In this document: positions 23,612 through 61,539 of the stretch, one piece after another
Position numbering within the stretch: position 1 is the stretch's first letter
Layout of the letters: each line of letters begins with the position of its first letter
DNA from: Eledone cirrhosa
Taxonomy: Eukaryota
Direction: 5' to 3'
DNA length: 64,000 nt
Assembly (NCBI GenBank): GCA_964016885.1
Contig: OZ024761.1
Coordinates: forward strand, 13,206,001 to 13,270,000
Notes under the pieces: model-generated
Database searches by the model: none
Told to the model about the DNA's origin: nothing
The model's input: only the letters and a program-made list of their open reading frames with translations
Program-made: the position numbers and the translations under genes

Positions 23612-24314
23612 TATGCAGAGGTTATATTTAATTTGTTGGGATTCAACAAGCTTAAACATTTTTATAACTGATATAAAGAACTCAACAAGTTAGTGGAGTA
23701 AATATACAATATATTAATAAATGGAAACTATATTTATAAAACCATAATTATTTTATTATATATATTTCAAGGACAACGAAGGTAAATAATGGTGCACTTT
23801 CATCAGATAAAATACAGATTTGTTTTATAAATAAATATTGACATACAAGGAAAAAAGACAACCTTAACGGTTGTAATTCGCTGGATAGTGGAGGTAATTG
23901 AGGGTGATACAAAGTTGTGAGTGAGTATGCAAATGAGTGTAAGAAAATTTGAAAAAAAAACGGTTTATTTAAATTAAACTGTTGGAAGAAAATAGATGTA
24001 AAAGGGAGAGAGACAAAAAATTTATATATATATATCCAGGAAGCTCCAACCGTTAAGGTTGTCTTTTTTTCAGGATATGTCAATATTTATTTATAAAACA
24101 AATCTGTATTTTATTTTATCCGATGAAAGCGCACCATAATTTGCCTCGATGGCCCTTGAAATATGTATAATATAATAAATATGGTTTTATAAATATAGTT
24201 TCCATTTGTTAATATATTGTATATTTACTCCACTAAACTGTTGAGTGCTTTATATCAGTTATAAAAATGTTTAAGCTTGTTGAATCCCAACAAATTAAAT
24301 ATAACCTCTGCATA
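23612..24314. repeat. Imperfect ~260-bp inverted repeat of a hammerhead-bearing element between (TA)n tracts
   Basis: 23612-23875 versus 24046-24314; single copies at ~30440-30710, ~48240-48420, ~61435-61580. Confidence 0.85.
23749..23814 (-). ncRNA. Hammerhead ribozyme motif (family B)
   Basis: TATTTTAT-CTGATGA-AAG...CTT-GAAA-TATATAT-A^ATAAAATA on the minus strand. Confidence 0.65.
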
Positions 24315-24754
24315 TATATATATATATAGTTTTAATATAGATGAGATTCTACAGGACTAGAACGCATATATATATATATATATATATATATATATATATG
24401 GCATACGTTTTGACGTATGCCTATATGGCATACGTCAAAACGGCCGGTCTCAAAAGTGAAACTAATTTTTGACTGTTACGTACACGTTATAAGAGTTATT
24501 TAAATTTATATATATAAAATAAAGGAGCAAATAAGAGCATGACATGACATGAAGTCAGTCATGTGTGTGTGTAAACGAATGTAAAAGAATATATGTAGGG
24601 CATAGATAAGGTTTCCTAGAATTTTACACACACATATACACACACGTGTATATATTATAGTGTGTATGTGTGCATATATAAGTGTATATGTGTGTGTACT
24701 TTTACATTCGTTTACAAACACATGCACACATGACTGACTCATATCATGCTCTTA

Positions 24755-25604
24755 TCTATATATATAAAACTGTGGTTGTCTGTCTGTCTATCGATTTTTG
24801 GCACACATCTCCTCTTAGAATCTCTCACGGAATTGCACCGAAATTGCTATACTTGTACATTGAGCCCTAGCGAAGACATCGGAAAAAAAAAATTTCAAAT
24901 TGACCCACCCTATGTGACGAAATCGAATATAATGTATCGATTTTTGAGCGTAAGTTATCAGTTATTTCCCTTTGTTCTGTTTACATTGAGCGTCTTACGT
25001 AAAAAATTACAATACACGAACAGTTGTCGAGCCAGCAAAATATTGACCTGCAAAATTCATCAGTTCGAACACTAAGCTTCCGTTTTGCTTCATTTCCATT
25101 TAAAAGCATTTTAAAACAATATTTTTACTTGAAAACAAGTCTATTTAAAGACTACGTAAAACAAGCAAATATTTCGTTGTTAGGCGTGCAGACAGACAGT
25201 CGTGCAGAGAGGTGATATACGCGTGCAGACAGACAGTCGTGCAGAGAGGTGATATACGCGTGCAGACAGATAGTCGTGCAGAGAGGTGATATAGGCGTGC
25301 AGACAGACATAACTGATAATTTGGTTACGCTAATGTTTTTCTCTGCGTTGCAGTGTTTACATTTTCGATCTTTGTTAATAAATAACCAGTGCAGTTTCTA
25401 TCCCCAGCATCCTCTTTTGTTATAACATTCGGGTTATCGTTATGTTTTCTTAACTTCATAAGGCATATTGTTGGTTGAGGGAATATTAATCAAAAACACC
25501 ACATGCAAGTCTGCACAGTAGACACTACAGTTTTTAAGCCAAAAAAGAAACTTAACATTGTAACTTTAACACAGCTACTGAGCGACCCCGAGCTTTACTG
25601 CTAG
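24755..25604 (+). mobile_element. Probable non-autonomous Helitron with internal 37-bp tandem repeat (25184-25290)
   Basis: A|TCTATATATATAAAA 5' end, (TCTG)n just inside, 3' ...CTGCTAG|T; subterminal hairpin degraded. Confidence 0.55.
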
Positions 25605-26404
25605 TATATATATATATATAAGAACAGATTAAAGTTTAAGCAAAGAATCGCTGCCTTTACCCTTATCGAGCCCTCTTCAAATTTTAGTCTTCACATTTAT
25701 TTTGGAAGTATTGGTAGAGGGTCGGACGCCATGCTTTGACGCATAGAGTTACGGCCCTTGCCATTCTGAGTTCAAATCCCGCCGAGGTTAACTTTGCCTT
25801 TCATCCTTACGGGGTCGATAAAATAAAGTACCAGTAATACACTGAGTAATTGCTGGCCTTGTGCCTAACGTAGAAACAATTATAACATATATACCCTACA
25901 CGGTACATAACACTGTGTCCTGGAAAACCTTAATGCACTCGTGCATAACCAATTATATATATATATATATATATATATATATATATATATATATATATAT
26001 ATTGTTATACTTTGGGAGGGTCATGTTGCCAATAAATTCAGAAACGATATATATATATATATATACACGAGTCAAAGAACCTATCCTAACGAGTGACGTA
26101 TTATTGTTACTGATACACAACAACCCATTGCTTATTTGACCTCGACACAACCGTTTCGACAGAGGTCACGGTCCACATTGATGAACACCACGTGTGTACA
26201 CACATTCAGACAGACGTATATATACATACACACACACACACACCGGTTAGTTTAGCGCGTATTTTAATTGAAAAAACAACAAACTAAGAACGAATCTACG
26301 TACATATACAGATGTAGGAAGTAACGAGAGAATGTATACATTTTTATTAGAATGCTGCTGAAGTGTGTATATACATTTTCTGGGGACACCCTGTATGTAT
26401 GTAT

Positions 26405-26720
26405 AAAGTCACACGAAAGGATAACTACCCGACGAAGACCTGGTGAAACAACATGCGTGATATGCAATAAATTATGTAGAATTAGCTCCGGACTAAAAAA
26501 AAAACCCACATGGTGGTACATAAAGATTGTGTCCCATAAGGTGACCCCCCCCCCCTCCGATCCTGTGGAAAGCACAACTCTCTTCTGTCACCTGTGTTGT
26601 AAACCATGCAGATCTTCATCTGGTCTACAAAGTTATTTGCGAAGTCATGGACGAGGATGGGATGACAACGAAGAATCAATAAGAGAGGGCAATTGTGGGC
26701 GAAGACACGGCGCAATCACC
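26405..26720 (+). mobile_element. Probable LINE C-terminal zinc-finger remnant
   Basis: CVICNKLCRISSGL and CHLCCKPCRSSSGLQSYLRSH; no splice context. Confidence 0.45.
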
Positions 26721-60400: not shown

Positions 60401-61184
60401 CTCCCCTTCCTCCTACCACAATGCTCCATCAATGTTTTTGTTTCGCTTTTACCTTCCGAAGTTGTCCTGGTACTACAGAATCTACTTCAACTTCTTTCGA
60501 TGAGCAATAACAACAACAACAACAACAAAATCTTCCCTTATAAATTATATAGTTATATATATATATATATAGTAATAATTGTTTCTACTTTTGGCACAAG
60601 GCCAGCAATTACCCCAGTGCATTACTGGTACTATATTTTTTACAATATATATATATATATATATATATATATGTGTGAATGAAGTAATTCCATCGGAAAA
60701 GTCCAGGAAAAAAGAGTGCTCTATGTAGGCAACAGAGCTTAATTATTATTATTATGTAATAAACAACATAAGGCAGTTATTCCATTTACCAGTGGTTTCT
60801 TAAAAGCAAAAGGTTTTGCTTTTAATCCTCAGAATGAAAAATCCTGGTTTGTTTATTGAATTTGGATTCTAAAAACAAAAATGCAATCTATATGAAAGTG
60901 AGGCTGGAAAAGGGAGAAGGAAAGGAAAAATAAAATAAAACTACACATGCAAACACACACACAAAAAAACACAAAAGCATACTTACACACACATACATAT
61001 ATACATATATATAAATGTACGCATACATATATACATATACACATATATATATATATAAAATATATATATATATATAGTAATAATAATAAATGTGAAGTCT
61101 AAAATCCAAAGAGGGCTCGATAAGGATAAATATATATCAAATATATAAGATCTGTTGAGCAAATATTTATTAAAATAACAGATT

Positions 61185-61290
61185 AAAGTTTAAGCAAAGA
61201 ATCGCTGCTTTCACCCTTAACAGGATCTTCTGAAACTGTTTCAGAAGATCCTGTTAAGGGTCAAAGCAGCGATGCTTTGCTTAAACTTTT
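61185..61290. repeat. ~52-bp arm palindrome of another (TA)n-associated repeat (relatives ~25620-25700, ~30755-30910, ~61310-61400)
   Basis: AAAGTTTAAGCAAAG...CTTCTGAAAC-T-GTTTCAGAAG...CTTTGCTTAAACTTT. Confidence 0.8.
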
Positions 61291-61474
61291 ATATATATAT
61301 ATATATATATAGTAATAATAATAAATTTGAAGACTAAAATCCAAAGAGGGCTTGATAAGGGTGAAAGCAGCGATTCTTTGCTTAAACTTTAATCTGTTAT
61401 TTTAGTCCTCCAAAAGTAATGGTCGCATTTTGAAAGGGTATGTCAATGCTTATTTGTAAAACTGATATATATTG

Positions 61475-61539
61475 TATTTTGTCTGATGAAAGCATACCAT
61501 AATTTAACTTGGTATCCTTGAAATATGTATAATGAAATA
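61475..61539 (+). ncRNA. Hammerhead ribozyme motif (family B)
   Basis: TATTTTGT-CTGATGA-AAG.ATACCA..TGGTAT.CTT-GAAA-TATGTAT-A^ATGAAATA. Confidence 0.68.

Follow-up and report, generated by a model that had tools for sequence, protein, structure and literature searches.

The 64-kb stretch of the Eledone cirrhosa genome analyzed here (assembly GCA_964016885.1, contig OZ024761.1, positions 13,206,001 to 13,270,000; 64,000 nucleotides, hereafter the window) carries eight motifs that we read as type I hammerhead ribozymes in the terminal repeats of Hydra-clade Penelope-like elements (PLEs). The window copies would be the ends of such elements, each insertion likely having been primed twice, once per strand of a (TA)n target; we give this reading a probability of about two in three. 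The sequence evidence makes it almost certain that the eight motifs are genuine hammerhead folds, kept by selection, and that they end copies of new and very abundant Hydra-clade families. PLEs are the sister group of telomerase reverse transcriptase (RT).

Hammerhead folds and their carrier elements

Each motif runs in the order stem I, CUGAUGA, stem II, GAAA and stem III; the predicted cut follows AUA and precedes the 3' strand of stem I. Stem I consists of eight A-U or G.U pairs, and stem III of an 8-nt self-complementary sequence. Seven of the eight window copies hold the type I hammerhead core of CUGANGA and GAAA, with U16.1-H17 and three stems. A first-pass annotation of the window had taken the motifs for Penelope-type hammerheads with a palindromic stem III, and this reading holds: the stem II pairings that it wrote out, the A-U or G.U pair that opens stem II and the self-complementary stem III are all found in the sequence, ATATGTAT pairing with two G.U. 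Its statement that stem II differs completely between subfamilies went too far, since all families keep three base pairs, an unpaired C opposite C or U, and then a variable helix.

The compensatory changes that the annotation had proposed are real. Stem II covaries in a set of 245 distinct copies, taken from all loci then collected with a search pattern that placed no pairing requirement on this stem; pairing was scored position by position with a script, because MAFFT misaligns stem II across the eight motifs. The three closing pairs are formed in 96.7% of 735 cells, compared with 33–74% when the partners are slid by 1–2 nt and 76% when strands are swapped between families. Position 4 is paired in 0/245 copies (C.C in 167, C.U in 66), which defines a conserved internal C.Y mismatch, and the two pairs beyond it are formed in 97.8% of 490 cells. 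Two-sided changes across 20 clusters, which represent about six lineages and are not independent, are seen at four positions of stem II and one of stem III (for example A-U 14 and G-C 4; G-C 12 and A-U 8; C-G 9 and U-A 10). The flanks of families A, B and C are only 15–46% alike (ungapped). That the core, the symmetry of stem III and the pairing of stem II are kept across families with such dissimilar flanks argues that the fold is under selection.

Folding energies count against the fold. As single strands, seven of the eight motifs fold no better than their shuffles (z −0.8 to +0.9; only 48004 reaches −2.7), so that the case rests on the covariation. Stem III is unfavourable as a hairpin (+4.7 kcal/mol) and gains 2.2–10.5 kcal/mol as a dimer; the most frequent stem III dimer is a weak one (−2.2 kcal/mol), and stem I is made up of A-U and G.U pairs throughout. 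The poor scores of the seven monomers are what would be expected of chance palindromes in AT-rich DNA, an explanation that is refuted by two other results. A structural descriptor matched nothing in 19 of 20 shuffles of the window, once in the remaining one, and nowhere in three shuffles of a systematic sample of the genome (59 evenly spaced 10-kb stretches, 589.6 kb, with contigs C16 and C25–C27 and small contigs left out). Moreover, stem II pairing was no part of the search pattern and yet occurs at the rate given above, far beyond that of slid partners.

The annotation had suggested looking upstream for an ORF (open reading frame) encoding RT and GIY-YIG, and such a frame is present above longer copies of window families A, B and C. 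A walk upstream from family A yielded 30 loci in which the 3' end is sharp and coverage declines towards the 5' side. The unit, ~3.7–4.5 kb long, comprises a 5' untranslated region (UTR) with site 1, hairpin 1, site 2 and hairpin 2, then the ORF, a 3' UTR of 1.3–2 kb, the hammerhead, and site 1 and site 2 again. Within the ORF, the RT is followed by a CxCx5C linker and the GIY-YIG endonuclease; open stretches include one of 628 aa in locus L169. The family A frames, colinear with the hammerhead, contain RWR, DKT (SDKTNNLY, a DKG-to-DKT change), YRDD, CNCRNKYNCP, VY...YVG, CxxC and CxH, and families B and C lead into related RT-endonuclease frames that are also colinear with it. RWR in place of RWK is a conservative variant, present in Hydra-1_Crog too. 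The linker precedes the endonuclease in families A, B, C and D; CxxC occurs in all four and CxH in A, B and D (the family C stretch ends before it), both lying around the conserved E and N, and the printed stretches of families A–D have no cysteine pair within the GIY-YIG core, the CCHH motif thus being absent.

Pfam returned no family for any of the three ORF stretches, and the domains were therefore read from motifs and from a published alignment (PMC8557442), with which the proteins line up by eye. A PDB sequence search with an 82-protein profile gave no match at E up to 1. There are 860 homologues at 34–44% identity, nearly all without a name; among the 120 listed, CxCx5CP is found in 112, YRDD in all 120, and RWK or RWR in 98. 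In a quick tree of the endonuclease region, families A–D grouped together (7 rows, SH-aLRT 97) among unnamed homologues. As described by Craig et al. (2021; PMC8557442), the Hydra clade of C-terminal EN+ PLEs shares with these families DKT, the CxCx5C linker, the absence of CCHH, CxxC and CxH near the end, a (TA)n target and, close to the 3' end, a sense hammerhead whose stem III is palindromic; a sense hammerhead in the terminal repeat and insertion into (TA)n are observed in 8/8 window copies. The families differ from that description in having RWR rather than RWK and in unit length, which is generally <3 kb in the published clade. The supplement of the same paper gives hammerheads and (TA)n targets for Hydra families including Hydra-1_Obim from an octopus, whose hammerhead sequence is unlike that of the present families. 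As judged from these features, the window copies are 5'-truncated ends of at least three Hydra-clade PLE families inserted in (TA)n.

The hammerheads also resemble those of PLE pseudo-long terminal repeats (pseudo-LTRs) described by Cervera and de la Pena (2014; PMC4209133) in their type I fold, long stem II and palindromic stem III, in their many dispersed single and opposite-strand copies, and in the circular template proposed for them. They differ in that G10.1-C11.1, highly conserved there, is A-U or G.U here, and in their 8-bp A-U stem I, 8-nt stem III palindrome and conserved C.Y mismatch after three stem II pairs. With animal non-LTR retrozymes (PMC7229834; bioRxiv 10.64898/2026.07.22.740005), they share type I hammerheads and high numbers, up to 120,000 copies in axolotl. 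Those retrozymes are non-coding tandem repeats of 170–400 nt, whereas the present copies are truncated ends of coding elements, are single or head-to-head rather than head-to-tail repeats, and lead into an ORF. It is accordingly very improbable that they form an independent non-autonomous retrozyme or short interspersed element family borrowing PLE proteins. The absence of any ORF remnant from the window, and the size of most copies (<300 bp), would suit such a family; it is largely refuted by the longer A, B and C copies being colinear with RT-endonuclease frames, by the ragged 5' ends and by the lack of tandem arrays.

End sites, hairpins and paired arms

In each family, copies fall into two end classes, ending ~55 nt (short, site 1) or ~145 nt (long, site 2) behind the predicted cut. 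The two sites lie ~95 nt apart, each 2–8 nt before a bulged hairpin that belongs to the 5' UTR of the next unit, and the copies end with 4–6 nt of TA identity to the target. In both hairpins, a 2-nt bulge separates four closing pairs from an inner stem, and the two stand 92–100 nt apart; the closing pairs are ACTC/GAGT in hairpin 1 and GCTC/GAGC in hairpin 2 (22/23). The modal junction lies 2–5 nt before the hairpin in families A and B and 7–8 nt before it in family D. The first mismatch to the read-through sequence falls at −2 in 21/38 anchored short ends and at −3 in 25/36 long ends of family A, and at −5 in 11/18 short ends and −3 in 21/29 long ends of family B. In each insertion the hammerhead is kept whole, whereas hairpin 2, alone or together with hairpin 1, is lost from the 3' end.

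The hairpin is visible by eye in four of six published Hydra consensuses. Hydra-1_Ajap has it twice in the leader, Hydra-2_Ajap and Hydra-2_Amil have it once behind the ribozyme, and Hydra-1_Crog has it as GCCC/GGGC; it is not clear in Hydra-1_Amil or Hydra-1_Obim. The main text of PMC8557442 contains no mention of 'hairpin' or 'stem-loop'. Inverted pairs with a one-sided tail have been described qualitatively (PMC3846280 and PMC8557442); the tail measures ~95 nt in the present families, which number ~1 × 10^5 copies, compared with the 30–40 bp given for PLEs in PMC8557442. We found no publication on these families or on the twin hairpin, subscription papers, Repbase entries and bioRxiv supplements lying outside the search. 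Likewise, two end sites each before a hairpin, together with a counted pairing of long and short ends, were not found in print.

When two copies are joined head to head, one arm generally has the long end and the other the short end. A first set of 57 pairs comprised 49 long/short, four long/long and no short/short pairs, with four unclassified, and family A pairs, retrieved with queries lacking the tail, were long/short in 21 of 23 classifiable cases. Across all loci, the 88 pairs comprised 69 long/short (two of them relabelled, as the family E reference ran into TA), four long/long and three short/short, seven with a read-through arm and five unclassified; less one locus that was counted twice (69/76), the rule holds in 68/75 classifiable pairs. 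Queries for families B and C were biased towards long arms; the systematic sample, free of that bias, gave 8/9 long/short pairs (P 0.015), and two further family C pairs also proved long/short.

The rule was also applied predictively. For 19 loci, the class of the far end was predicted beforehand, and all 15 that could be resolved were complementary to the 5' partner (14 short, 1 long; chance ~3 × 10^-4); the other four had no far ribozyme in the retrieved stretch. In 14 of the 15, the short end belongs to the long arm and the tail to its small partner. Arms of one pair are a median 97.1% alike, compared with 90.5% to other copies, and 68 of 69 pairs lie above their family median. By this likeness, the two arms of a pair share a template.

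Proposed double priming and its alternatives

We propose that each hairpin would bind one RT-endonuclease subunit and that each subunit would nick one strand of the (TA)n target, the two nicks falling on opposite strands. Reverse transcription would begin 2–8 nt upstream of the subunit's hairpin, and the 3' ends of the two complementary DNAs (cDNAs) would be joined head to head, in many cases at a short palindrome. Double priming as such is likely; the role of the hairpins as putative protein binding sites is rather more probable than its opposite, though we hold to it somewhat less firmly. The model is supported by PAc, the Poseidon element of the green anole, for which Frangieh et al. (2024; PMC11167929) report a pair of internal start sites, both target strands being cut and extended, together with a predicted dimer. 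In PAc, as in the present families, the two start sites set the tail, the target is AT-rich and the ribozyme lies upstream of the start sites. The PAc start sites differ in lying in the ORF, in an AC-rich stem loop, with no homology to the target; those of the Eledone families are found in the 5' UTR, where each precedes a hairpin of its own, and show TA identity to the target.

The inverted arm has also been read (PMC3846280 and PMC8557442) as a fold-back, formed by self-priming of one cDNA or of an antisense template, with the tail coming from an endonuclease that resolves the intermediate. This view draws on the near-identity of the arms and on the clustering of junctions at short palindromes, most family C arms joining at CATATG plus a few extra bases. 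A cDNA primed at site 1 cannot gain a 95-nt tail by folding back, however, and in 14 loci a short-ended long arm is joined to a small partner that has the tail, so that one cDNA folding back cannot be their source. A fold-back also leaves the hairpin behind each end unexplained, and we regard it as improbable.

How the start signals come to stand behind the 3' UTR is a separate matter. ORF-bearing arms with a long end exist (L169, L172, L368 and L183), and these need hairpin 2 behind the 3' UTR. In the weaker part of our proposal, the two hammerheads of a full transcript would pair via their palindromic stem III and cut out one unit, the ends of which would be re-joined as a circle or bridged by an end-to-end template jump. 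Excision and re-joining would bring the hairpins back behind the 3' UTR and would explain copies of more than unit length. We judge this circular route, in which ribozymes release one unit and its ends are re-joined, to be slightly short of an even chance; a circular template has been proposed before for PLEs with hammerheads (PMC4209133).

A linear template is the main competitor. The same elements and priming sites would then be used on a linear read-through or tandem transcript, the hammerhead trimming the 5' end of the message or riding along unused. With this, 14 of the 15 resolved loci would fit use of site 1 at the 3' end and of site 2 only in the 5' UTR, and many short pairs end 60–85 nt before the core (68–72 nt in both arms of family C), as a transcript start might. 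A linear template explains better than a circle why short-ended long arms are in excess and why arms stop at this distance before the core. In addition, unprocessed RNA was the main substrate in vitro in PMC11167929, and PMC8557442 raises the possibility that hammerheads are mere parasites of PLEs. However, the four long-ended ORF-bearing arms require a hairpin 2 downstream of the 3' UTR, and no locus was found to hold two complete units. An unused hammerhead, moreover, sits poorly with the conservation of the core, stem III symmetry and stem II pairing despite the dissimilar flanks. We consider the linear template on the unlikely side, and circular and linear routes may both be in use. A head-to-tail 4-kb array at 316.58 Mb on contig C4, a candidate tandem of whole units, was rejected as a duplicated, rearranged block.

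Several results weigh against double priming at paired hairpins on a hammerhead-processed RNA. The pattern used to find the hairpins itself fixed the arms of the hairpin, 23 of 49 read-through copies passing it with three artefact rows dropped, and the hairpins are weak (−3.5 to −5.6 kcal/mol) and sometimes not the best fold. Exceptions to the rule, long/long or short/short, make up 7/75 pairs, four of the seven without a TA run between the arms. Only one of the four predictions of a long far end was resolved, and two of the 15 resolved loci have no ORF in the retrieved stretch. In the general set neither arm type is the longer, the short arm being longer in 21/38. Among the 60 copies that span the ORF start (two query loci included), 46 run upstream through an intact hammerhead and only two end within 4 nt of the predicted cut; with no pile-up of 5' ends there, the genome shows no direct trace of cleavage. 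According to PMC11167929, ribozyme mutants were without effect on insertion in vitro, the start sites showed no strand preference, and no RNA reads ended at the cut.

The fullest form of the preferred reading is tentative. In it, a twin hairpin would be conserved from corals and sea cucumbers to cephalopods and would seat two RT-endonuclease subunits on a circular RNA made by the hammerhead. These would prime twice on opposite strands with the fixed long/short geometry, and the circle would restore the start signals lost from the 3' end of each insertion.

Window copies, copy number and significance

All eight motifs lie where the first-pass annotation had placed them and on the strands it gave, with cores starting at 23806(−), 24120(+; CCGATGA), 27333(−), 27461(+), 30518(+), 48004(+), 48322(+) and 61483(+). 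It had called them eight dispersed copies, mostly next to (TA)n. All eight elements in fact run into a (TA)n tract, ~45–145 nt behind the predicted cut; the motifs occupy only six places, as two belong to one head-to-head insertion and two form an adjacent pair. The descriptor search of the window found seven of the eight, missing the core mutant, and two hammerheads of other families. In an Rfam scan of the window, none of the eight was among the matches listed (150 of 238), which were dominated by microsatellite matches to microRNA models.

The adjacent pair (23806 and 24120) consists of two family A 3' fragments with long ends, 83% alike and separated by a short TA run; both look decayed. 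The first (23613..24039, minus strand) has its hammerhead at 23749–23814 with a decayed stem II, the predicted cut after 23757, hairpin 1 at 23680–23699 and a (TA)n tract starting at 23613. The second (24033..24313, plus strand), likely an independent insertion, has the CCGATGA core mutant in its hammerhead at 24112–24177, the predicted cut after 24169 and hairpin 1 at 24227–24246. The head-to-head insertion belongs to family B, and its arms are alike in 151/157 columns. The long arm (27145..27401, minus strand) contains the hammerhead at 27275–27341, the predicted cut after 27283 and hairpin 1 at 27209–27233, and the short arm (27402..27564, plus strand), with the hammerhead at 27453–27519 and the predicted cut after 27511, ends before hairpin 1.

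The remaining copies lie on the plus strand. A family A 3' fragment with a long end (30406..30711) has the hammerhead at 30510–30575, the predicted cut after 30567 and hairpin 1 at 30625–30644, and a long-ended family C fragment (47935..48191) has these features at 47996–48066, after 48058 and at 48109–48133, respectively. Inserted into the TA run behind the latter is a family A-like 3' fragment with a short end (48236..48419; hammerhead 48314–48378, predicted cut after 48370), and a second short-ended family A-like fragment lies at 61408..61580 (hammerhead 61475–61539, predicted cut after 61531). Most dispersed copies are dead stubs with no partner ribozyme in cis.

Related sequences surround these copies. 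A second abundant fold-back family in (TA)n occupies 22843–23030, 26990–27138, 30340–30398 and 56128–56360; the same bulged hairpin follows its short end, and related hairpins lie at 33786(+) and 35103(−). Eleven of its 12 pairs are long/short, and 10 copies occur in the systematic sample. Its GAAA and long self-complementary helix recall the 3' half of a hammerhead, but a search upstream in 49 copies turned up no CUGANGA core, one junction artefact aside. Another inverted pair (23307–23410 and 23555–23590), with the hairpin motif behind one end, probably represents a further Hydra-type family. A hammerhead at 60832(−) belongs to a further family with a stem III resembling that of Hydra-1_Obim; it is followed by the same hairpin at 60738(−) and a TA end, and has two more copies in the sample. 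Hammerheads of another family, with a 6-nt ACTAGT stem III, lie at 36358(−) and 14338(−), and no hairpin of the twin type was found behind either; the region 36305–36376 matches Rfam HH9 at E 1.4e-5, below the gathering score, as the sole hammerhead row among the matches listed. CTGATGA...GAAA motifs with a short stem II at 545(−), 47585(+) and 63772(+) failed the strict descriptor. Five partial tRNA-like Rfam matches (2985, 9782, 11518, 20984 and 34014) are copies of a tRNA-derived short repeat.

Outside the window, locus L063 carries, beside a family A copy, a 533-aa open RT and GIY-YIG frame of a different PLE type (reverse strand, offset 157). In L175 and L223–L229, one short interspersed repeat lies just 5' of the start codon in two subfamilies, the query itself having contained this repeat. 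At least 10 identical hammerheads with a 310-bp period, resembling a non-LTR retrozyme array, lie at L277:7014–9804 (G000:C9, 28.0 Mb). When two presumed RNA runs and one other were compared with a junction locus, the presumed RNA gave short AT-rich pieces only, the stretch being largely unrelated flank.

The annotation had supposed a very high genomic copy number if the window is typical. The number is indeed very high. In the systematic sample, the strict descriptor counted 21 copies, a looser descriptor 30 and BLAST 34, the last in 17 stretches and with an intact core in 28/34; scaled to a genome of 3.0 Gb, the BLAST count gives ~1.7 × 10^5 copies (bootstrap 1.0–2.6 × 10^5). The window, at 125 copies per Mb compared with 58 for the genome, has about twice the mean density (P ~0.09 for a count of at least eight). 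By contig, the four largest contigs hold 11 copies in 33 stretches and the smaller ones 23 in 26.

Hammerheads in PLEs are already known, and the motifs alone would be ordinary. The available text of PMC13282606 counts Penelope-like families in an octopus with no mention of 'ribozyme' or 'Hydra', and PMC8557442 and PMC11167929 name PLE inverted repeats, the one-sided tail and the purpose of the ribozyme as open questions. The value of the present families lies in the anatomy exposed by ~1 × 10^5 copies, which bears on the origin of the inverted repeats and of the tail and on the role of the ribozyme. The twin hairpin, the two start sites, the long/short rule and the (TA)n target allow the question of how PLEs insert to be tested directly, and a compact RNA signal of this kind might steer a site-preferring integrase. 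With such a copy number, the genome of E. cirrhosa would rank with the most hammerhead-rich ones reported.

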